A stretch of DNA of 64,000 nt. It comes from Cyanobacteria bacterium auto_48_18. Lineage in GTDB: Bacteria; Cyanobacteriota; Vampirovibrionia; Obscuribacterales; Obscuribacteraceae. A program made the position numbers and the translations under genes. The stretch lies in contig JAVHQC010000035.1 in the NCBI GenBank assembly GCA_036170915.1, positions 64,001 through 128,000 of the forward strand, read 5' to 3'. Under the pieces are notes generated by a model. The model was not told where the DNA came from and did not search any database. It saw nothing but the letters and a program-made list of their open reading frames with translations. Positions 45,536 to 61,783 of the stretch are shown here, one piece after another (the stretch's first letter is position 1; each line of letters opens with the position of its first letter).

Positions 45536-47242
45536 TTAGCGAGGTGCAAACCTTTCTTTTTCACGAGTGAGGCGGTCCCAGTCAGAATCGGTCATGAAGC
45601 CCATTTTAACTAAAAGTTCTACAAGCTTGACGCCCTTCTGCCTGGCGAGCTCAATTACGTCTCTCAATTCGTCGCCGTTGAGGCGCCGACGCTGCAATAG
45701 ATACTGCTCCAGCTCTACTCGACCCAGCAGAAGATCGGCCGTCAAGCTGACAACCTGATCAGGCGGGTCGATGTAACCGCGCTCTAAAGCATACTTACAG
45801 TTATGTAATACCTGAGCCGGGTCTCGACCTAAGCCGCCATCTGTGGCAACGTTGATAAATGTTTTACCTGTCTTAAAAGCAGAAACAATTTTTTTCAAAT
45901 CGTCATCTAAAGCGTCATTATTCAAGGCTACCTGGCCAAAAGGAGCCACATGAAAGCAGGTTTGAAATAGCCTTTCAATATCAATGGCAACCAGAGGCAA
46001 AGGATCGGTGCGACGGATGTCAAAGGATTTTTTCTCGGGCTCCGGCTCCACATCAGCAGGTTTAAAGGAAGTTTGAGCCTTTGGTTTTTCTAAAACCGAG
46101 GTTTGGGTACCAGGCTTTTCGTCGTCATTTTTCAGAGAAGCAGTCTGAGCTTTGGCCATCAGTTCATTAAACTCAGCGCTGCCTACGGCAGGCAGGCTAT
46201 CAGATGTAATTACTTCTGCCGGTCTTTGAACCTCTGCTTCGGCAACAGGTGTCGAAACTGGCTCAGGAATAACTACTGGATCTGGCACTTGAGCTGGCAC
46301 TTGAACTTGAGCTGGAGCTGGCGCTGGAGTTGGAGCTGGCTCAGGCTTAGAGTCAGGCGCAAAATCAGAATCTATTTTTGGTTCTGATTTAAGTTCTGAT
46401 TTAAGTTCTGATTTAATTTCCGGTTGCTTGCTCGACAGCTCCGCCACTAAATCGGCAGCAGGCTGAGATTTACCGGCATGGCCGTTTTTGTTGGCACCAC
46501 CATCAGTGCCTTTGGGCTTAATGGATTTATCAGCAGCCGATTTTTCGCGGGATTTCTCTCCAGATTTATCTGCGGATTTTTCTACAGATTTCTCAACCAC
46601 TTCCTCAGCTGCCGTCGCCGCTGCTTTATCCACCAGGGCCTGTGCCTGACTGAGATCTTCCACCTGGTCTAGAATCGAGTCGAGACTGGGGCGAATGCTG
46701 TCCACAGAGCCGGTGCTCAGTAACCTGAAAAGCGAATTCGTGGCCTGCACCACGTCAAAACTAAACTCACGCATAGCCTGGCGCATGGTACGACCATCGG
46801 TGACCCAACCCAGCACCACATAATCTTCCTTATAAAGCGGTTGCTTTTGCAGCGCCTCTTGCCATTCTTGAGTGCCAAATTTAGGAGACGGCACAATTTC
46901 GGTATTCAGACCGACATTAGACTTCTGCAAAAAAAGCATTTGATCGGCAAAAGTATTGACTTGTTTAAGCGGTATCTTGAGATTACAGCTTTCCGCACTG
47001 GTGGCGCCCTGAGCCAGGCGCTCCACAATAAAAGTACCTTCATTCCAGAAGAGGAATTCAGTCAGGGCGTCATTGCCCTCTAAGAGGCTGAAATTAGCCG
47101 CCAAAATCTCACCGTCGCAGACGATTACTTCGCCTTTCTGAGTACCATTAGTAAGCTGAACGGAATAACTTTTATTTGATTCGGTGGCCAGAAATTGCAG
47201 CAGACCTGGCAGGCTGACATCGGACAAATTGCCTTCAATCAT
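45536..47242 (-). CDS. DUF4388 (PatA_N-like) domain protein with disordered linker and degenerate MshEN-like C-terminus
   Basis: IEGNLSDVSLPGLLQFL..GEV..DGEI..A..G.DAL..W.EGTF; C-terminal KLVELLVKMGFM. Confidence 0.8.
   Translation of the reverse strand: MIEGNLSDVSLPGLLQFLATESNKSYSVQLTNGTQKGEVIVCDGEILAANFSLLEGNDALTEFLFWNEGTFIVERLAQGATSAESCNLKIPLKQVNTFADQMLFLQKSNVGLNTEIVPSPKFGTQEWQEALQKQPLYKEDYVVLGWVTDGRTMRQAMREFSFDVVQATNSLFRLLSTGSVDSIRPSLDSILDQVEDLSQAQALVDKAAATAAEEVVEKSVEKSADKSGEKSREKSAADKSIKPKGTDGGANKNGHAGKSQPAADLVAELSSKQPEIKSELKSELKSEPKIDSDFAPDSKPEPAPTPAPAPAQVQVPAQVPDPVVIPEPVSTPVAEAEVQRPAEVITSDSLPAVGSAEFNELMAKAQTASLKNDDEKPGTQTSVLEKPKAQTSFKPADVEPEPEKKSFDIRRTDPLPLVAIDIERLFQTCFHVAPFGQVALNNDALDDDLKKIVSAFKTGKTFINVATDGGLGRDPAQVLHNCKYALERGYIDPPDQVVSLTADLLLGRVELEQYLLQRRRLNGDELRDVIELARQKGVKLVELLVKMGFMTDSDWDRLTREKERFAPR
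46381..46416. repeat. 12-bp tandem repeat x3 (codes KSE(L/P) units)
   Basis: gttctgatttaa repeated three times. Confidence 0.85.
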
Positions 47243-47541: not shown

Positions 47542-48483
47542 TTGGCCGCCAAAGTTACTGATGAACTCTCAGAAGATTACGCCGACGTCTTTGGCACTGG
47601 AGATGAGCCGGAGGCCGATGATGAGCCGGAGAAGGAGGTAGAGGCCAGCGGCTTCACTGAAGACTCTGTTCGCCTCTATCTGCGCGAAATCGGTCGCGTC
47701 AAAATGATCAAGCCAGACGAAGAAATTGAGTTGGCCAGACGTATTGCCAAAGGGGATGGCGAGGCGAAGAAAAAGCTGATTCAAGCTAACTTACGCCTGG
47801 TAATTTCTATTGCAAAAAAATATTTGAATCGCGGACTGCCCTTTCAAGATCTAATTCAAGAAGGCAATTTGGGCCTGATTCGCGCCGCCGAAAAATTTGA
47901 CCATACAAAAGGTTTCAAGTTCTCCACCTATGCCACCTGGTGGATAAGGCAGGCTATCAGCCGCGGACTGGCCGATAAATCACGAACTATCCGTGTGCCT
48001 GTACACATGGTCGAATCAATCAATAAATTGAAAAAAACCAGTGCAAAATTGGCTCAAGAGTTAGGCCGCAAGCCAAACGAGCACGAGCTATCATCGGCAC
48101 TAGAAATTCCTGTGGGTAAAGTGCAAGAAATCATGGCGGCCGACCGCGAACCTGTTTCAATGGAAATGCCGCTTAACCGCGATGATGAGACATATATCGG
48201 CGACCTGATTGAAGACAACGAAGCTACGCGGCCTGATGCCACCACAGCTGAAGAGCTGATGCGTCAAGACTTGAGCCGCATGCTCAGCCAGTTAACGCCC
48301 CGCGAACGTGACATCATGCATTTGCGCTATGGTCTTGAAGACGGCAGGCAACGCACTCTCGAAGAAGTTGGGCGGCTGTTCAACATTACCAGAGAGCGTG
48401 TACGCCAAATTGAACACAAAGCTTTTCGAAAATTGCGGCAGCCCAACTGGTCATCAAGACTGGCTGGATATCTGGACGATTAA
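47542..48483 (+). CDS. RpoD/SigA family sigma70 factor (short, probably non-primary)
   Basis: [47 protein letters not shown]; no region 1.1. Confidence 0.93.
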
Positions 48484-51581: not shown

Positions 51582-52397
51582 CTAATATTTATAGATGATT
51601 TGAGCTTTATTGGTGCTGCTGACGTCAGCTGGTCGCTTAGGCCGCCTCAGCTGAGGGTGCAGAAGAAATAGATGCCCACCCATCTCAATTGCCTCATTAT
51701 TTTCAAGACCATCTGCGTCGGCTTGATCATCTATTTTATGGTTGCCGTGCAGTTTTACTACTAAATTGATATGAGCGTTATAAGGTGCTGGCAATATGGA
51801 ATCAAATTTGGCCACCGGATCCGCCGCCCCAGTAACTTTTTCCACATGGGTTAGAACCGCCGGCGGAAAAGGCGAATCAAAAAAGACAAATACACCTCTT
51901 ACCTGATCGCCCTGCCGTGCTTGCATCTTGGCCATGCGTCCAAGAAAATCTTTGAATAAGTCAAGTTGAGCGTGAGCATTCTCATTTTCTGCGGTTTTAC
52001 TGAAAAGCGGCTCAACCACTAAAGCGCAGGCTAGTGTCTGGCCGGTGTTGGTTTTAAAGTTCAATTCGTAGACCGGCATTGCCACTTTTTGAAAAATGCC
52101 GCGCGCGAGCTGCTTTACGTCTACAACTGCAATTTTGGAAAGTGATTCCCACAGCTTTATTTGACGATTGTATAGCCCGCTTTGATGCGCCTGGGTAAAG
52201 TAATCGGTCAAAACAAACTTTGCCGCCGCCATTACCATGTCTGGCACTTTGGCGGAAGGCTCAAAGAGCAGATTGGCGCAAGCCGCTTCGAGATCTTGAG
52301 CTGTGGCGGTGCGAGGCGACTGAGTGACTGAACTAAGGTTAAAAGCCTCGGTGGTGTCATTTTTTATGACAATGGTTGAGCTATTTACAACAGACAT
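51582..52397 (-). CDS. Hypothetical protein
   Basis: 271-aa ORF filling the gap; family not recognised. Confidence 0.7.
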   Translation of the reverse strand: MSVVNSSTIVIKNDTTEAFNLSSVTQSPRTATAQDLEAACANLLFEPSAKVPDMVMAAAKFVLTDYFTQAHQSGLYNRQIKLWESLSKIAVVDVKQLARGIFQKVAMPVYELNFKTNTGQTLACALVVEPLFSKTAENENAHAQLDLFKDFLGRMAKMQARQGDQVRGVFVFFDSPFPPAVLTHVEKVTGAADPVAKFDSILPAPYNAHINLVVKLHGNHKIDDQADADGLENNEAIEMGGHLFLLHPQLRRPKRPADVSSTNKAQIIYKY

Positions 52398-52831
52398 TTG
52401 ATTTATCAGTCCTAACCACTGTAAAGAATGGGGAATTTGGTGCTATATCAGCCGGAAGTTTGGTAAGGCCGCTTAGCACCATTTAAACGTGGTACATCTA
52501 TGTTAGCGAGTTTAACCAGCGACATGCTATTACTCGAACTTGACGAGGGGGTGAATAAAAGTTCAAGAATATTCAGTAATTTAGCAAATCCATGTCCTTG
52601 GAGTACTCTCGGTAAAGCTTATATCAGGTAAACTGATAGTAGGCATCTTGGCGGTTGCAGCTTACTTTCAGAATTGGGGGAAGTAAGTGCGCAAGTGAGG
52701 GAAGTTAACCTCTATCTTATTGGCTAGTTTAATCCCCCCACAATGCGCACTATTTCACAGAGGCAGCCTTCAGGCTCCGATAGGTCCTGAGCACGCACGT
52801 CTATAGTTTCTGTGAGTTAACCATTTAAATA

Positions 52832-53410
52832 ATGCCTCTGCTTCCATCGAAGAACAACACCAAAGAATTTGATCAATCCGCCGTGTCAGTGCTGACCGAC
52901 CTGAAAAAAGGCGGTAGTGACAAGCGTAATGAATTTATCTGGGTGCACCAGGAACGTATCTACGCTGTAGCCCTGCTGGGTACCGGCGACCATGAGCACG
53001 CGGCCGAAGTCACCATATCTTCCTTCAACAATGCTTTCAGTGCTCTCAACCAGAGTTTGCCTAAAAACCCCGATATGTCAATCTGGGACTGGCTTTCTCA
53101 ATATGTCGTTGAGGCCATGGGTGAGTATCACAGCGCCAACAGCGGGCCACCTGACGAAGAAGAAGCAGACCCTGCTCAAGATGGATCCGCCAGCATGGAC
53201 TGGGAGACAACAGTTCTACTTGGCGTGCAGAGAGTCAAACGTTGCATTGGCTCATTGCCTCAAGAGTTGAAAAGAATCTTTCTGCTCAGGCACAGTCTTG
53301 ACCTCAATTACGAACAAATTTCCATCATTACCAATCAAAAAGTCGAAAGATGTATGGCATTGCTCTACCGCTCTCGAGTGCAAGTAGTGAAATGTTTGGG
53401 CCGCGGTTAA
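52832..53410 (+). CDS. Divergent ECF-type RNA polymerase sigma factor
   Basis: Region-2-like HQERIYAVAL..TGD..AAEVT..F..W.WL; region-4-like LPQELKRIFLLR..LNYEQIS..LYRSR. Confidence 0.75.
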   Translation: MPLLPSKNNTKEFDQSAVSVLTDLKKGGSDKRNEFIWVHQERIYAVALLGTGDHEHAAEVTISSFNNAFSALNQSLPKNPDMSIWDWLSQYVVEAMGEYHSANSGPPDEEEADPAQDGSASMDWETTVLLGVQRVKRCIGSLPQELKRIFLLRHSLDLNYEQISIITNQKVERCMALLYRSRVQVVKCLGRG

Positions 53411-53454
53411 AGTTTACAAGTTAGTGACAGTAAAGGTTTAAAGGTTGATATCTA

Positions 53455-56400
53455 ATGTCTGACGCCGAGTACAGATTACTGATTCAAAGATCATTCGATG
53501 AAGAACTCTCTAAACAAGAGCATCGGGCGTTCGTCAACCATCTGGAAACATCAGATTCCGGTCAGAAGTTTCACCATCAACTTGATCAAATGATCCAGGC
53601 CGCACAAGATACACCTTTGCCCGATGACCTTCGTCCACAAAACCCGGAAGCTCTTGCGAGAATGATTATGGAACAACTACCGCAGAAAAAAGGCTCTATT
53701 TTTGCCATGTTCACCAACTTGTTTGGTGGCGGCGGCGGTGGAAAAGCCAAACCAGGGGCAAGCAAGAACGGTCAGTCGAAAGGCTCGGTCAAAGTTAAAG
53801 GCGGCGACAAGAAAGCCGATGCCAACCGTGGAGCGAAAAAGGGCAAAGGTAATGTTCAAGTAGATGTCGATGACGAAAATGACGTCAGCGCACCAACCGA
53901 CAGACGCCTGCCCGGCATGAAGTTAAGCCGCAAAGAAAAGGCTGCTGAAGCTGCTGCAGAAGAGTTGGAAAACTCAATCGGCACTTTCTCGCGCCTGGGC
54001 AAAATTAATTCCCGTGCCAACGATGCCATGGAAAATCGTGATGCTCAATCAACCACCAGATCTCTTGGTGAAAAATTTGGCATGCCTGGTGCCACAAGCA
54101 ATCCACTTGACGAAGCACCACTAACACTGGCTGAATCAATCAAGCGCAAAGTTTCAGAATCGCAAAAGCTTTCGCCTCTAGACATGGAGAGCGAGGAGTA
54201 CAGTCAAGAAACGTCCGGCGCTCAGGCGCAAAGTGGTGGCAATTTTGCCAGGCCTCAAGACTACGCAGCACCAGAACAAGGCGCTTCAGCATGGAGCGCG
54301 CCAACACCAATCGGTTTACCTATTAAACAAAAAATGGGCGCACCGGTAACGGCTCAGGGCTTAGACTGGAGTGGTGCACCTGCTGGTAGTGGCACCGGCA
54401 GTTATGAAGAACACCCTGGTTCAGCTATTGGTTTAGCACCACCTGGGCAGAAGCCTCCTACTCAGCAAAACATGGGTGCCGTATCGAGCGCCGCATCGGG
54501 CGGGGGTCTTGATTGGGGTGGTGCGCCAGCAGCGGCGCAAAATAATCAAAGCGGCTGGGGAAGTAATCAGCCTGCAATGGAACCTACATCAAGTCAGCCG
54601 CAAGCATTTGCGCCTCCCACTGGCATGAACAATGCTGGTATTAGTATCAGTGCTCCAGCACCAGTAGCACCTGCTGCACCTGCTACTGCTGATGGTGGCG
54701 GCTGGGGTTCGGGCTGGGGCAATGAAAATCAAGCTCCGGCTCCCGGCGCGCCTGTTCAGGGCACCGGCGTGCCTCTAAAATCATCTGACTCGTGGGCAGT
54801 GCCCGGTTCTGAAGCAGCCAGCTCCTGGGGACAGCCCGGCGAAACTCCAGCAGCTGCATTCCAGCCTGAGCCTGTAGCTGCAAGCCCAGGCGTTGACCCA
54901 TGGGGAAGCGCTGCGGTAGCAAATTCTGGTTCTGAATCAAGCACCAGCACTGGTGGCTGGTCGAGCCTGAGCAATGGCAATGCATCAGCTCCAGCTCCAA
55001 TGTCACCGGCACAAGGTGAAGGTGATGGTGGCAACTGGGGCCAGGCAGGCACATGGGGCGCACCTGGTACGCAGGCCGACTCGTCTTCAACTGGTACTCT
55101 AGACTCGGTACATAATGCTGCTCCTGCCCCGGCTAACGACCCCTGGGCACAACCGGCTCAGCCAGCTGCAGCAGCTCCAACTGCTTCGACTAATGACGCT
55201 TGGGCCAGTGTAGCTGCTGAAGTAGCAAAGCCTGCCGCAGTCGCAGCTACTAATGATCCTTGGGCACAACCTGCTCCAGCTGCCGCAGTCGCTAACGATC
55301 CTTGGGCACAACCTGCCTCCATGGGCGCACCACCAGCTTTCCCTGCTCCTGTAGCAACGAATGACCCATGGGCACAGCCTGTATCCGAACCAGCTCCTGC
55401 CCCTAGTAATGATCCCTGGGGCCAAGCTTCACAGGCTCCACAAAGCGCACAAAATTTCGGCGCACCGGCTTCAACTATTCCTGCTTCCGCTCCGGCACCA
55501 GTCAATGACCCTTGGGCCCAGGCAGCGGCAGCACCCCAGGCATTAGCACCGGTTGCCAATGAAAATGTAGGTTGGTCAGCACCAGCAGCTCCTGCTGCTG
55601 ATGCCTCAGGCATGGCCTGGGGACAATCAGCATCTGGGGGTGGCGCTCAACCTATCGCTCCCGCTCCACTTGCTACTCCAGCGTGGGGCTCACCGGAATC
55701 GGCACCACCTGATGCTAGTGCAATGCAGCCGGTGGCTCGAGCAGCTTGGTCACCAGAAGCTGAACAGATGGAAACCGGCACCTGGCAAGCCTATGGGAAG
55801 AAAGAACAATCTACACCACTAGCACCAGCAGCCTCGGCGTTTGTGCCTCAGTCTGCACCAGCAGCCGCCCCGGCAGGCGATCGCTGGGATCAACCGATTC
55901 AAGATCGCAAGCCAGAACCGGCTGCCACTGAAGCTGCTCGTTGGGATGTGCCAATTCAAGCACGCACCACGGGAGCCGATCTACCAGCACCAGCACCAAT
56001 TGCACCGGTGATGAGTTCGGGTATTCCGGTCAATCAGATCGTAGAAAAAATGGGCGCGGTACTTGGTGGTGGGCAGGACAACCGTTGGGATGTACCTATT
56101 CAAGAACGGGCTAATAAAGATGCTGCACCAGAGCAAGCAGCTGAAGTTATGCCTGCAGCACCAGCTAATGCGGCACCATTTGGTGGCGCACCGGCACCTG
56201 CTGCACCATCAGCATGGGGCGATACTCCATCTCCATCTCCATCTCCAGCCCCGACAACCTGGGGCACACATCCGGAACAGCCTACTACAACTCCATGGGG
56301 GGCGGTGGAAAGCGCACCAGCAGCAGCTCCGGCAGGTGCTGCAGACGCGCCTGCAGCACCTGCCGCCTGGTCGGCACCAGCAGAAGTGGCACCTCAAACA

Positions 56401-58098
56401 CAACCAGCTGGATGGGGCAATGAAAAGCCACAAGTTCCTTCCTGGACAGCCGCCGCAGAAGCCGCTCCGGCTGCCGCGCCAGCATGGAACAGTGCTCCGG
56501 CAGCAGCAGCACCAGCTCCTTCTGGATGGGGTGTAGAACCACCTGCAGCAGCACCAACATTGCCAGCGCCTTCAGCCTGGGCAGCAGAACCACCAGCCGC
56601 ACCAGCAGCACCTGCAGGAGCAGAGGCGTGGGGTCAGCCACCAGCATGGGGTCAGGCTTCTCCAACTCCTGCTCCAGCAGCACCACCAGCACCAGAAGTA
56701 ACTGATCGCAACAATGCTGGTGGTATGTTCAATTTAGCCGACCGCGATATCGATAAGATTTTTGGCGACAATCTCGGCGTCAGCGAACCGGTTGGCAGAA
56801 CACTGGTAAATACTGGTGGAACGGATCCTTCATTAGCTGTGCCCGCGGCTGCAGTAAATAATTTTGCTCCACCGCAAGCTCCTGCAGCAGCGGTTCCACA
56901 AACACAGGCTCCAGCACCGATTGCACAAGTACAAGCTCCAGCAGCGGCACCACAAGCAACACCTGCCGCTCAAGAAAACAAAGGTCTGTTTTCACTAACA
57001 GATAATGATCTCGACAAATTGTTCAGCAATAATTTAGGAGTGGACGAACCCTCGACTCAAGTAGCGAACAATGCACCATCCATAAGTCCAGTGCAAGCCG
57101 CCAACAACTTTGCGCCACCAGCGCAAGCAGCCCCAGCAGGCTGGAGTGCACCAGCTGAAGCACCTGCAGCTCAACCGGCAGGTTGGGGTGTACCTGCACC
57201 TGCTCCTGTGGCCGGCGCCACTACATCTGGTGGCGGCTGGTCAGCCGCCCCACAAGCACCAAGCGGCTGGGGCATGGAAGCAGCTCAACCTGCAGCAGCA
57301 GCACCAAGCGGTTGGTCAGGCGCTACTCCTGCAGCACCTGCTGCCGAGGCACCAGGTGGTTGGGGCACACCCACACCACCAGCACCGCCAGCCTGGAATC
57401 AAGCTCCAGCTGCAGCGGCAGCACCAGCGCAAGAGCAAAAAGGTGGCTTGTTCTCAGTTGACGATAATGTGATGAACCGCATTTTCTCAGATAATCTAGG
57501 CATTCCAGAAGATGCAAATAGTTCTTCAGCTACAAATTCTTCTTTAGATTCGCAGACTGATATGGGCATGTCGGCTCCGCCTAAGATTGCTGGTATCGGC
57601 CGTCTTGACGCTTCTGCCGATCAGAACCAAGACGCTGGTTCAGGCAGAATTGCTTCCATCGGGAAATTCTTGCTCGATCAAAAAGACCTGGATAAAATCG
57701 GTAAACTAACAAGCTCCGACTTTAACGAAGGCAAAATGCGCATCCTCACTCTTGAGGCTTCGCAAGATTTGCAATCGTTGCTAAGCCAGATAGGCACTCA
57801 ACAGGGAGTCGTCGGCTCAGTAATTGTGGGTCATGACGGACTTCTGATTGCCAACACCATGCCTGGTGATATGGACGCTGAATCTGTTGGAGTATGGGCA
57901 CTGGGTGTTTATATGAACACTGAACACGTGACTAAAAAAATGGGTCACGATCGGGTGCACCAGGTTGTCTCGAGAACCCACCGCGGTTACGTGGTAATTG
58001 CCGACTTCGGCGGCGGTTTGCTCGTCACTGTAACTGACGGCAGAGACACTGATTCATTGATTCCGCTGATGCGTACCATCACACAGCTGGTTAATTGA
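53455..58098 (+). CDS. Anti-sigma-like N-terminus, long Pro/Ala/Trp disordered region, C-terminal Roadblock/LC7 (MglB-like) domain
   Basis: LIQRSFDEELS..E..F..HL; repeated motifs; GVVGSVIVGHDGLLIA..G at the C-terminus. Confidence 0.8.
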   Translation: MSDAEYRLLIQRSFDEELSKQEHRAFVNHLETSDSGQKFHHQLDQMIQAAQDTPLPDDLRPQNPEALARMIMEQLPQKKGSIFAMFTNLFGGGGGGKAKPGASKNGQSKGSVKVKGGDKKADANRGAKKGKGNVQVDVDDENDVSAPTDRRLPGMKLSRKEKAAEAAAEELENSIGTFSRLGKINSRANDAMENRDAQSTTRSLGEKFGMPGATSNPLDEAPLTLAESIKRKVSESQKLSPLDMESEEYSQETSGAQAQSGGNFARPQDYAAPEQGASAWSAPTPIGLPIKQKMGAPVTAQGLDWSGAPAGSGTGSYEEHPGSAIGLAPPGQKPPTQQNMGAVSSAASGGGLDWGGAPAAAQNNQSGWGSNQPAMEPTSSQPQAFAPPTGMNNAGISISAPAPVAPAAPATADGGGWGSGWGNENQAPAPGAPVQGTGVPLKSSDSWAVPGSEAASSWGQPGETPAAAFQPEPVAASPGVDPWGSAAVANSGSESSTSTGGWSSLSNGNASAPAPMSPAQGEGDGGNWGQAGTWGAPGTQADSSSTGTLDSVHNAAPAPANDPWAQPAQPAAAAPTASTNDAWASVAAEVAKPAAVAATNDPWAQPAPAAAVANDPWAQPASMGAPPAFPAPVATNDPWAQPVSEPAPAPSNDPWGQASQAPQSAQNFGAPASTIPASAPAPVNDPWAQAAAAPQALAPVANENVGWSAPAAPAADASGMAWGQSASGGGAQPIAPAPLATPAWGSPESAPPDASAMQPVARAAWSPEAEQMETGTWQAYGKKEQSTPLAPAASAFVPQSAPAAAPAGDRWDQPIQDRKPEPAATEAARWDVPIQARTTGADLPAPAPIAPVMSSGIPVNQIVEKMGAVLGGGQDNRWDVPIQERANKDAAPEQAAEVMPAAPANAAPFGGAPAPAAPSAWGDTPSPSPSPAPTTWGTHPEQPTTTPWGAVESAPAAAPAGAADAPAAPAAWSAPAEVAPQTQPAGWGNEKPQVPSWTAAAEAAPAAAPAWNSAPAAAAPAPSGWGVEPPAAAPTLPAPSAWAAEPPAAPAAPAGAEAWGQPPAWGQASPTPAPAAPPAPEVTDRNNAGGMFNLADRDIDKIFGDNLGVSEPVGRTLVNTGGTDPSLAVPAAAVNNFAPPQAPAAAVPQTQAPAPIAQVQAPAAAPQATPAAQENKGLFSLTDNDLDKLFSNNLGVDEPSTQVANNAPSISPVQAANNFAPPAQAAPAGWSAPAEAPAAQPAGWGVPAPAPVAGATTSGGGWSAAPQAPSGWGMEAAQPAAAAPSGWSGATPAAPAAEAPGGWGTPTPPAPPAWNQAPAAAAAPAQEQKGGLFSVDDNVMNRIFSDNLGIPEDANSSSATNSSLDSQTDMGMSAPPKIAGIGRLDASADQNQDAGSGRIASIGKFLLDQKDLDKIGKLTSSDFNEGKMRILTLEASQDLQSLLSQIGTQQGVVGSVIVGHDGLLIANTMPGDMDAESVGVWALGVYMNTEHVTKKMGHDRVHQVVSRTHRGYVVIADFGGGLLVTVTDGRDTDSLIPLMRTITQLVN
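54892..55525 (+). repeat. Coding (N/V)DPW(A/G) peptide repeats
   Basis: 7 DPW plus 1 DAW motif; recurrent aaYgaYccNtgggc. Confidence 0.85.
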
Positions 58099-59818: not shown

Positions 59819-61783
59819 TCAAGTACTGCTATTGATCACGCGTGCCACTATTTCGTCTACGATTTTGCTGTCTACTTGCCGCCGACAATAAGCAAGGTAG
59901 GCTTCCATCCAGCGGCGCAATTCTAAAAGCACTGCTGAAACCGGCACACCATCACGTTTCATCTGAGCAAGATTAACTGATATACGACCTTCATGGTCTA
60001 CGTGAAAACGAGATTTTGCCGGCGAGTCGCCATGCACATAGTGCAAAGATGCTTGCAAGAGCGCCTTATTGTCTTCGCGACCGACTAGCTCTTGCATCTC
60101 AGCGCCGATTTTCTGCAAAACAATGAGCGGACGAAAGAGACTGGCCTGTTGAATATTAGCCAACTTCAGCTCAGTGAGCATATACAACGATTTGACAATT
60201 TTATGAGTGGGCCAGTTATCGAAAGCCTTAATTACTTCGTCGATGGTAGACAAACCGTCTATAAGAGAAGCCAGCTCAGCAATCATTGAGCGGTCTTCAC
60301 GACTCAATACAGTCTCGTCCATCAAGCGTATAGGCGCACCGTTATACTGCTGCCAGACCATCTCGAAATTCCAGACTCTCTCTAAAATCGAATCTCGCCC
60401 CTGGGGCAGACTGGCAAAAATTTGATTGACTTGATCTTGGCAGAGTGCCGAGTCTAAGAGCAAGCGCTCTAGTGTCTGAGTAATTTTGCAATTTTCATCA
60501 AATTCTTGAGACAGTCCTTTGTCTCGAAAAACAAAAATGCCCTCGCTCCAGACTGTAATAAATTCGACCATGGCGTGATAGCCGCGCAACTTATTCATTT
60601 TGGCGTGAGTGGGTTTGCCGTCCACAAAAGCGACAATCAATATTTTTTCGCGATCTTCTACGGTGAGCAAACCGGTTTTCTTGGCCGTTCCCAGTGACTG
60701 TAAAAGGCCAGCCGTATCAATAGCACCGAGGCTTCCGATCATAGAATCGCGCATAGTTTCAATATTGACTGTACGCGAGACGCCTGGCAGTTCGTCTTCG
60801 GTGCGCCTGTGATAGCCACCATAAAGATATTGATCGTCAAGCAAAACTTCTAGCTCACGAGTGTTCAAATAACCGGCACGCACGGCCAGAAGACCAAGGA
60901 AAGTGCGTTGCTGTTTGCCCCAACCTTCTTCTTGTTGCCGCTCAAGAAGCTCGCGTAACTGCGTTTCAGTGAGAATGCCGCAGGCCACCATATAGCGCCC
61001 AAGGCGGAAGGGCTTGCGATTATGATAACAATTTGACAAAAATTGAATGCGCGAAAATACAGGAAAAATTAAACGTGCCGCTTCCAGCTCTTGCAATATT
61101 CGCAAAGCTTCATCAGAAGGCAGTTGATGGTGCGATTCTACATTGCGCACAATCGACTCAACTGAAGCATAATCTTCTACCATCTGCATCACCCAGTTTT
61201 GCGGCGCAGGCAGGGTAAAGTCACCCTTTACTTGCTTACCGTCTGAGGTCAAAACAGGAATTGAAGTTGAGAGAATGTGATTGGCCAGAGTGCTGCCACC
61301 ACCTTTGAGGCGGCGGCGATCGATACCACTAACAGTGGCACAGGCATAGTCAGCCAGCAGCGGGTAGCGAGTGAAAATACCAAAGGGACTGTCGTAAATA
61401 TTGAACGTCAGACCACCAGCAGGATCGTCTTTCGTTAGAGTAATAGCGCCGTCGCCCTTTACAAAAAGCAGCACTCCTTGCGGGTTAAGGAGCTTCTTCG
61501 CGTACATAGCAAATTTAACTAAAGCATCTAAAGGCAGCGAAAAACCAGTCTGCATCAGATCAATGATCAGGCCATCTAAACTTTTACCGGTCTCCACCAA
61601 TTTGTCTAGTTGACTATATAGATTTTCGCGATAAGAAAATGTCAAAAAGGCCAGGGAAGAATTGAGATAATTTTCAGTTGCTTCTTTTTCGCTATTTGAC
61701 GGTCCAGAAGATCCAGATGATCCGGGCGACCCGGACGAACCAGATGCAGCCTGTGGAGCATCGTTAGGAGAGAAGTCAGCCAT
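59819..61783 (-). CDS. MshEN plus DUF4388 domain protein
   Basis: RLGRYMVACGILTETQLRELLERQ..FLGLLAVRAGYLNTRELEVLLDDQ; GSLGAIDTAGLLQSL..KKTGLL..F.DGK..W.EGIFVF. Confidence 0.82.
   Translation of the reverse strand: MADFSPNDAPQAASGSSGSPGSSGSSGPSNSEKEATENYLNSSLAFLTFSYRENLYSQLDKLVETGKSLDGLIIDLMQTGFSLPLDALVKFAMYAKKLLNPQGVLLFVKGDGAITLTKDDPAGGLTFNIYDSPFGIFTRYPLLADYACATVSGIDRRRLKGGGSTLANHILSTSIPVLTSDGKQVKGDFTLPAPQNWVMQMVEDYASVESIVRNVESHHQLPSDEALRILQELEAARLIFPVFSRIQFLSNCYHNRKPFRLGRYMVACGILTETQLRELLERQQEEGWGKQQRTFLGLLAVRAGYLNTRELEVLLDDQYLYGGYHRRTEDELPGVSRTVNIETMRDSMIGSLGAIDTAGLLQSLGTAKKTGLLTVEDREKILIVAFVDGKPTHAKMNKLRGYHAMVEFITVWSEGIFVFRDKGLSQEFDENCKITQTLERLLLDSALCQDQVNQIFASLPQGRDSILERVWNFEMVWQQYNGAPIRLMDETVLSREDRSMIAELASLIDGLSTIDEVIKAFDNWPTHKIVKSLYMLTELKLANIQQASLFRPLIVLQKIGAEMQELVGREDNKALLQASLHYVHGDSPAKSRFHVDHEGRISVNLAQMKRDGVPVSAVLLELRRWMEAYLAYCRRQVDSKIVDEIVARVINSST

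Follow-up and report, generated by a model that had tools for sequence, protein, structure and literature searches.

Among bacterial sigma/anti-sigma pairs, SigW-RsiW of Bacillus subtilis (PDB 5WUQ/5WUR) consists of an extracytoplasmic function (ECF) sigma factor and a ZAS-type anti-sigma factor encoded by the following gene. In Myxococcus xanthus, MglA, a Ras-like GTPase, is controlled by MglB (PDB 6IZW, 6H5B, 6HJM), a protein of Roadblock fold whose C-terminal helix contacts K181, K185, L64 and I67 of MglA and promotes nucleotide exchange (PMC6785124), a helix-driven role upheld in PMC13408092. The lysines of the MglA pocket co-evolve with this helix (PMC6785124). We analysed a gene pair that brings both kinds of part together, at positions 52832 to 58098 of a 64,000-nucleotide stretch (the window) of Cyanobacteria bacterium auto_48_18 (assembly GCA_036170915.1, contig JAVHQC010000035.1, positions 64,001 to 128,000), of the order Ca. 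Obscuribacterales, a lineage known here from genome bins only. A small protein of ECF fold is encoded directly upstream of a giant protein that begins with a ZAS domain and ends with a Roadblock domain.

Compared with SigW-RsiW, which gives the best sequence match for the N-terminus of the giant protein and the best fold match for the sigma-like protein, the locus has the same order of sigma gene and ZAS gene, but the giant protein has no transmembrane (TM) or extracellular sensor and carries about 1450 further scaffold residues, the sigma is degenerate, and the zinc ligands are lost in 15 of 49 copies. With the Myxococcus pair the genome shares a group-1 MglA, the Roadblock fold and an acidic helix of the D-D-x-x-I-D-x-L-F type; the giant protein has several such helices, inside the chain and on the N-terminal side of the Roadblock, whereas that of MglB is a single C-terminal tail. 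Moreover, the Roadblock of the giant protein is not an MglB orthologue, mglA is not gene-coupled to it, and the Myxococcus proteins have no anti-sigma domain. Bdellovibrio bacteriovorus has also lost mglB and kept MglA, in a hub with polar type IV pili and cyclic di-GMP (c-di-GMP) receptors (PMC3983030), but its MglA has a TPR protein and RomR as docking partners, and neither a Roadblock scaffold nor a sigma module is mentioned in the available text. M. xanthus GltJ and RomR have disordered linkers with short motifs that bind MglA or replace the MglB helix (PMC11135422, PMC6785124); their domains are instead ZnR, GYF, TonB-C and receiver domains, with no sigma partner in the text available. 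In PhyR-NepR-EcfG (PMC8999054), a sigma-fold protein binds an anti-sigma without acting as sigma factor, but PhyR has a receiver domain, NepR is small, and the accessible part describes neither a scaffold nor a connection to a GTPase. Actinobacterial conservons (PMC8510531) tie a Roadblock protein and a Ras-like GTPase to gene regulation; in the text available, theirs is an operon of four genes that includes one for a kinase-like membrane protein but has neither an ECF/ZAS pair nor a giant linker.

Each part belongs to a known kind; for their architecture and for the connection between them, the searchable literature has no description. Our literature search, which most subscription papers fall outside, found no description of an anti-sigma-Roadblock fusion and nothing on MglA or ECF/anti-sigma in Obscuribacterales/Melainabacteria. 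A survey of mglB (PMC4316618) mentions receiver-domain fusions and, in the part available, no anti-sigma fusions. Our best reading, put forward tentatively, is that the giant protein may be a membrane-tethered scaffold of an MglA/pilus hub and hold a pseudo-sigma. The gene pair and its terminal parts are as follows:

52832..53410, + strand: sigma-like gene, open reading frame (ORF) of 192 aa; ECF fold, with regions 2.2 and 2.4 and some of 4.2 degenerate
53455..58098, + strand: giant scaffold gene, ORF of 1547 aa; full-length fusion in relatives
53455..53688, + strand: ZAS/zf-HC2 anti-sigma domain, residues 1-78, by RsiW profile match; zinc Cys lost in the window copy
53695..53727, + strand: amphipathic helix by hydrophobic moment, residues 81-91, then a Lys-rich stretch; putative membrane role
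57577..57738, + strand: pre-Roadblock extension, residues 1375-1428, in 38/38 full-length proteins; shared with pilB-linked scaffolds of a sister class
57739..58095, + strand: Roadblock/LC7 domain by Pfam and fold; subfamily distinct from MglB

Both ORFs lie on the + strand, 44 bp apart, at the coordinates given in an earlier note made from the sequence of the window, which had described an ECF-like gene followed by an anti-sigma-Roadblock fusion. The pair is conserved. Among 200 other genomes of the class, a close orthologue of the sigma-like protein (E<=8e-45) was found in 48 of the 49 that belong to this order, while the remaining 151 have none; in 48/48 it is followed, 15-154 bp 3', by a gene that begins with the ZAS domain. 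This following gene is a full ZAS-linker-Roadblock ORF at 37 of the 48 loci, runs off a contig end at 9 and is split, apparently by a frameshift, at 2; of a second, overlapping set of 80 loci, 62 have the fusion together with the sigma gene, 14 are cut short and 4 are split. The possibility that the fusion is a frameshift artefact was rejected, since it forms one ORF in 62/80 loci and overlapping frames or stretches of N were seen at the five split loci examined. The only genome of the order without the sigma-like orthologue (G062, 98% complete) also has no giant protein.

By its sequence relationships, the N-terminus of the giant protein is a ZAS-type anti-sigma domain. The window copy matches Pfam zf-HC2 below threshold (E 0.022), 32 of 33 orthologues match it at E<=0.1 (best 7e-7), and the family profile finds the anti-sigma RsiW (E 8.5e-7). 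The domain homology proposed in the earlier note holds, with a correction for the zinc ligands of the window copy: the 49 copies divide into CHCC (34), DHSG (13) and DFSC (2), and the window copy, with D-H-S-G in place of C-H-C-C and no zinc-binding Cys, is one of the 13 that lack all three Cys. A complex between the sigma-like protein and residues 1-92 of the giant was predicted with a score of 0.84 (best control 0.00), at least 90% contact agreement between runs and a partner predicted local distance difference test (pLDDT) of at least 81; the score mark used is passed by 116/157 solved pairs and 2/215 mismatched pairs. On this model the N-terminus has a predicted sigma interface.

The domain is followed by a helix (residues 81-91) whose hydrophobic moment is at least 0.5 in 49/49 copies (median 0.58), a value reached by 12% of random windows. 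With the adjoining lysines it is likely, on sequence grounds, to be a membrane anchor, which we take to be of the MinD type; a similar helix opens 5/5 examined sister-class scaffolds that have no TM helix. No TM helix was found in the giant protein itself, as previously claimed (top 19-residue hydropathy 1.25, within the Roadblock), and the 'cytoplasmic' location attributed to it becomes doubtful because of the amphipathic helix.

The sigma-like protein matches Pfam Sigma70_r4_2 above the cut-off (E 8e-7), and its AlphaFold model (pLDDT 82) has the two-domain sigma2-sigma4 fold of ECF factors, with SigW as best Foldseek match (E 5e-6); its family profile matches AlgU, SigmaE and SigW. Pfam Sigma70_r2 (PF04542) has no match in the window protein and is recorded, in precomputed annotation, in 0/120 homologues; as a control, the other ECFs of the genome match PF04542 in 4/4 (E<=5e-15). 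Across 114 family members, the LxQE motif of region 2.2 has its Gln in none and its Glu in six, Q406/E407 being listed core-binding residues (10.1101/2020.09.07.285775), and the last Asp of DAED, whose acids contact the beta' subunit (PMC8999054), is acidic in 48. The Asn of region 2.4 is present in 5/114, and this Asn and the Arg are mostly swapped for acidic residues; the same control ECFs are canonical at the 2.2/2.4 positions in 4/4. In region 4.2, the R171 equivalent is Met in 98, S172 is Ala in 89 and G168 is acidic (Glu/Asp) in 104. The gene is under strong purifying selection, with a within-genus ratio of nonsynonymous to synonymous substitution rates (dN/dS) of 0.02 in the only pair of five with measurable dS, and a pseudogene was rejected because dN is 0.03-0.04 at saturated dS. 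It encodes a stand-alone protein of 189-207 aa in 49/49 copies, with no receiver-domain fusion. For this family and the Roadblock, the ESM Atlas yielded ECF clusters of a generic kind and a single Roadblock cluster from Melainabacteria, nothing more specific. As residues for core binding and -10 recognition are lost and yet the protein is strongly conserved, a pseudo-sigma is the most likely interpretation of these sequences.

At the other end of the giant protein, the Roadblock/LC7 domain proposed in the earlier note was confirmed: Pfam Robl_LC7 at residues 1442-1526 (E 9.5e-9), Foldseek (E 5e-8) and VIA (Z 17.5, root-mean-square deviation 1.3 Å over 110 residues). A predicted sigma interface, a Roadblock C-terminus and conservation of pair and fusion were all found, and none of the three outcomes that the earlier note had set against its proposal occurred. 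Its description of the Roadblock as MglB-type is reduced to a likeness in fold: the family profile misses MglB in the PDB at E<=1, MglB ranks in the fold comparison (Z 14.9) below Asgard Roadblocks (Z 17.5), and the domain is not an MglB orthologue. The preceding extension is of low confidence in the monomer model, one helix excepted. Other Roadblock genes accompany the giant in this and related genomes. The window genome has a stand-alone 125-aa Roadblock (C3:8654-9031), a candidate heterodimer partner, 5' of an S-layer-homology-like exported protein; five genomes (L051-L054, L061) have extra tandem Roadblock modules as separate genes directly 3' of the giant gene; and some variants combine motif and Roadblock with a double zinc ribbon, or Roadblock with a Clp N-terminal domain (P0083, P0098, P0103; P0054, P0055).

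Between the two ends lies a linker that evolves faster than they do (within-genus dN/dS 0.12-0.16, against about 0.01 in both terminal domains). It is Pro/Ala/Gly-rich and holds 45 Trp in the window copy, which agrees with the low-complexity description given before, but it is not featureless, as five conserved islands were found in the low-complexity region:

54040..54168, + strand: island A, residues 196-238; in 38/38 full-length proteins, 0 in shuffles
54175..57570, + strand: low-complexity linker with evenly spaced Trp, about residues 240-1370
55738..55800, + strand: island B, W-x-x-E-A-E-Q-x-E-T-G, residues 762-782; 38/38, 0 in shuffles
55876..56115, + strand: three RWDxPIQ repeats, residues 808, 827 and 875; 82 copies in 24/38 proteins, 0 in shuffles
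56713..56784, + strand: MglB C-terminal-helix-like motif 1, GMFNLADRDIDKIFGDN, by motif pattern and profile
56974..57045, + strand: MglB C-terminal-helix-like motif 2, GLFSLTDNDLDKLFSNN, by motif pattern and profile
57436..57507, + strand: MglB C-terminal-helix-like motif 3, GLFSVDDNVMNRIFSDN, by motif pattern and profile

Full-length giant proteins, the window copy included, span 744-1845 aa, and close Trp pairs are rarer than chance in the linkers of 27/34 proteins. The acidic-helix motif, G-L-F-x-L-D-D-x-x-I-D-x-I-F, is present in 1-3 copies in 38/38 full-length proteins and in none of the shuffles. Searched against 177,635 PDB sequences, the motif profile ranked residues 149-160 of Myxococcus MglB (ISDDDIDNLFSE) first, weakly (E 3.3). 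A second profile, built from paralogues and sister-class members, had MglB as its sole match (E 5), but is not independent of the first result, as its members were chosen by a pattern written with the MglB helix already known. The motif spacing fits D150-152, D154 and F157 of MglB (PMC6785124). In the window genome the pattern occurs in 3 of 11,870 ORFs, and both multi-copy ORFs are the two Roadblock scaffolds; natural minimal members of 273-282 aa consist of the ZAS domain, one motif and the Roadblock. The linker's DPW repeats resemble those of epsin, but they are confined to close relatives, and an epsin-like role was rejected.

The genome that encodes this scaffold has one MglA and no detectable MglB. 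MglA was found by an Arf family search on contig C29 (43972-44586), outside the window as the earlier note had stated; an ATP_bind_1 family search of the genome gave no GTPase. It is a group-1 MglA (E 4e-79 to Myxococcus MglA, about two-thirds identical, catalytic residues kept) whose pocket retains K181, K185 and L64, with Val for I67, and MglA is at least 84% identical in 47/49 genomes of the order. No Roadblock gene lies within 1.5 kb of mglA at 12/12 order loci. The C29 gene lies between Hsp33-like and RecG-like genes, and 7 genomes of the genus share its product with 100% identity; additional MglA paralogues are present in many relatives, and the K185 equivalent is absent in the paralogue at the 3 loci examined. 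A true MglB, the GTPase-activating protein of MglA, from another class of the phylum (E 1e-20 to M. xanthus MglB), whose gene is followed by mglA in 5/5 loci, was used as query and gave a match in 0/61 order genomes and in 3/3 positive controls; the class with this mglB-mglA pair is probably Sericytochromatia. Since the pocket lysines of MglA are kept though MglB is missing, another ligand is expected. In the sister class, the two genomes checked among those with multi-repeat scaffolds (G213, G263) have an MglB without an acidic C-terminal tail, and in G247, G205 and G271, with one repeat, the MglB tail is longer and has D-x-F or D-N-L-F at its end.

Scaffolds of this type extend beyond the order. 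An extended Roadblock is present in 52/201 and MglA in 51/201 genomes of the class, in the same three families, and in a sample of the phylum 41/42 scaffold-positive genomes have MglA. Families f4-f11 yielded no Roadblock scaffold (0/149 and 0/20), and none precedes the 12 pilB-like genes examined. Sister-class scaffolds lie directly 5' of pilB in 27/29 loci, as do those of family f3 in 2/2; 28/29 carry 1-8 motif copies, and the three longer loci all show the operon pilB-pilT-pilC-sigma. In L193-L206, up to 8 repeats of the type GGG-L/M-F-D..LD..LDDLF stand in tandem. The window genome has an apparent counterpart of the pilB-linked scaffolds at C20:82315-85542, 3' of pheT, a 1075-aa protein with N-terminal membrane helices, an acidic linker with four LF..gvD.DID.LF-type repeats and an extended Roadblock; several proteins of this type in the order have two Roadblock modules. 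Its type IV pilus locus, pilB-pilT-pilC ... pilD-pilM/N (C15:111800-124517), includes an embedded three-domain sigma factor, which recurs after pilC in sister-class loci L242-L244.

We propose that the giant protein represents, in Obscuribacterales only, a family of scaffolds with long disordered stretches and an extended Roadblock at the end, which would serve an MglA/type IV pilus polarity hub. The amphipathic helix would seat it on the inner face of the membrane, and the Roadblock would dimerise, alone or with the other two Roadblock proteins of the genome, as suggested by its fold and by the fused or adjacent Roadblocks of relatives. Its two to three acidic helices would then dock in the alpha5 allosteric pocket of the orphan MglA in the manner of the MglB C-terminal helix, a step proposed because of motif likeness, pocket conservation and co-occurrence; MglA would be captured, or its nucleotide exchange sped up, in a lineage without MglB. 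The ZAS domain would bind the co-encoded ECF-fold protein, with which it is predicted to form a complex and observed to be co-inherited. With its sigma residues lost, that protein may be a stable hub subunit or adaptor and not a promoter-specificity factor; this role and the polar location of the hub are conjectural. A related signalling design, of a kind so far undescribed, also seems possible, if on balance doubtful: in a lineage without MglB, a membrane-tethered, condensate-like multi-helix scaffold would regulate MglA, and the anti-sigma would let the state or position of the pole control the sigma-fold protein, whether as a checkpoint-released true sigma or as a pseudo-sigma adaptor.

Several observations weigh against the preferred reading, the first of them in the small protein and its complex. 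The family retains equivalents of R149, Y156, F175, R176 and R178, the -35 contacts F175 and R176 in 114/114 and 113/114 members, and Met at the R171 position is present in the working factors SigH and SigR (PMC1540707). The pass of the predicted complex may reflect its likeness to the solved SigW-RsiW, and the predicted interface residues show no higher conservation than the other residues (0.70 vs 0.66, p 0.24). In one alternative, which takes up the model of the earlier note, the same scaffold holds a real, atypical ECF sigma in a FlgM-like pilus checkpoint, to be released by nucleotide state, pilus assembly or redox via zinc, whereupon its regulon is turned on. We consider this unlikely, as much as the full ECF fold, the -35 contacts, the strong purifying selection, the classic gene order and the whole C-H-C-C site of 34/49 copies speak for it; ECFs without DAED can moreover be activated by phosphorylation (PMC8999054), and Thr61 of the family is nearly invariant (106/114). 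The losses in regions 2.2 and 2.4 and the changes at G168 and S172 are set against it, a bipartite ECF-type self-promoter sought upstream of the sigma-like gene was not found, only a -10-like element emerging, and the pilus operon already has its own sigma. The scaffold model is common to the pseudo-sigma and the hub-controlled true-sigma readings, one or other of which is probably right. The 'sigma sequestration' of the earlier note, with its assumption of a working sigma, is weakened because the core-binding and region 2.4 residues are lost family-wide; its coupling to a GTPase or polarity hub receives indirect support from the orphan MglA, the MglB-helix-like repeats, co-occurrence and the pilB linkage of homologues.

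Other observations bear on the link to MglA and the pilus. Taken by itself, the match between motif and MglB lacks significance (E 3.3 and 5). The zinc ribbon of GltJ is a second partner of the MglB helix (PMC11135422), so that such helices need not bind MglA. Asgard and Ragulator Roadblocks are at least as close to the giant's Roadblock as MglB is; the co-occurrence of scaffold and MglA was counted across kin and is not independent; and the two f3 scaffolds have MglA in the genome and no motif by the pattern used. In Obscuribacterales, pilB linkage was found in 0/3 TM-type loci and not at C20, and in a quick tree of 121 columns, from which the filter left out the C20 protein, ZAS-type Roadblocks branch apart from the TM/pilB-type with support of 94. 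A second alternative would keep the sigma-ZAS pair and deny the scaffold an action on MglA: the helices would bind another partner (a zinc ribbon, PilB/MshEN, DUF4388 proteins or the Roadblock itself), or a generic membrane-tethered condensate would park the sigma. It draws on the weak motif statistics, the second partner of the MglB helix, relatives that join zinc ribbon, motif and Roadblock, the lack of gene linkage between locus and mglA, and the sticker-like Trp spacing. We regard it as improbable, for both motif profiles single out MglB, the pocket lysines are kept despite the missing MglB, and scaffold and MglA co-occur. A partner switch of the PhyR-NepR type (PMC8999054), in which the small protein would be a sigma mimic that titrates the ZAS domain away from a canonical ECF, fits a degenerate fold with its anti-sigma surface kept, the four canonical ECFs of the genome and the shorter ZAS-Roadblock paralogues without an adjoining sigma gene (11/11 loci), but is very unlikely given a mimic without receiver or other switch domain and the strict operon pairing and joint loss, which suggest a fixed partner.

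Around the gene pair, two further features were recorded:

52624..52635, + strand: upstream element TCAGGTAAACTG, conserved across upstream regions; putative promoter role
59819..61783, - strand: protein with DUF4388 and an MshE-type c-di-GMP motif; conserved neighbour, possible hub member

The core GTAAACT of the upstream element is present in 15/22 dereplicated regions upstream of the sigma-like gene (shuffle maximum 7), with no conserved block and no conserved -35 upstream of the box. An 11-mer of the same type as TCAGGTAAACTG precedes trpS and ileS, and GTATAAT/GTAAACT is enriched 5' of genes genome-wide; the element is probably, from these occurrences, a housekeeping-type -10 box. A sigma-70 consensus scan of the region upstream of the sigma-like gene gave no match. 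None of the genes examined for it (mglA, pilB, pilA, that of the pilus sigma and the remaining Roadblock genes) is preceded by the element, so that a pilus regulon motif was rejected. A DUF4388 gene lies within 7 kb of the locus in 43/56 full-length loci, and in the sister class DUF4388-like genes lie 5' of mglB-mglA. Two DUF4388 proteins with MshE-type c-di-GMP motifs, both on the - strand, flank the locus (window 45536-47242 and 59819-61783), out of about ten DUF4388-like proteins in the genome. A 271-aa protein of no Pfam family (window 51582-52397, - strand) is divergent from the sigma-like gene in 51/56 full-length loci. About 4 kb 5' of the sigma-like gene lies a gene for a 313-aa group 1/2-type sigma factor (window 47542-48483), and in three loci of one relative group a gene of this type is directly 5' of the sigma-like gene.

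If the preferred reading is true, the locus would join a polarity module built on a Ras-like GTPase, directly and physically, to a sigma/anti-sigma module, two systems so far studied apart. It would also suggest how an orphan MglA is controlled once MglB has been lost. The allosteric helix of MglB would have been reused as a portable, multi-copy docking motif, and the small protein would represent a candidate stand-alone pseudo-sigma family. For the non-photosynthetic relatives of cyanobacteria to which the organism belongs, the finding would mean that they possess a pilus-polarity system that has gone unrecognised.

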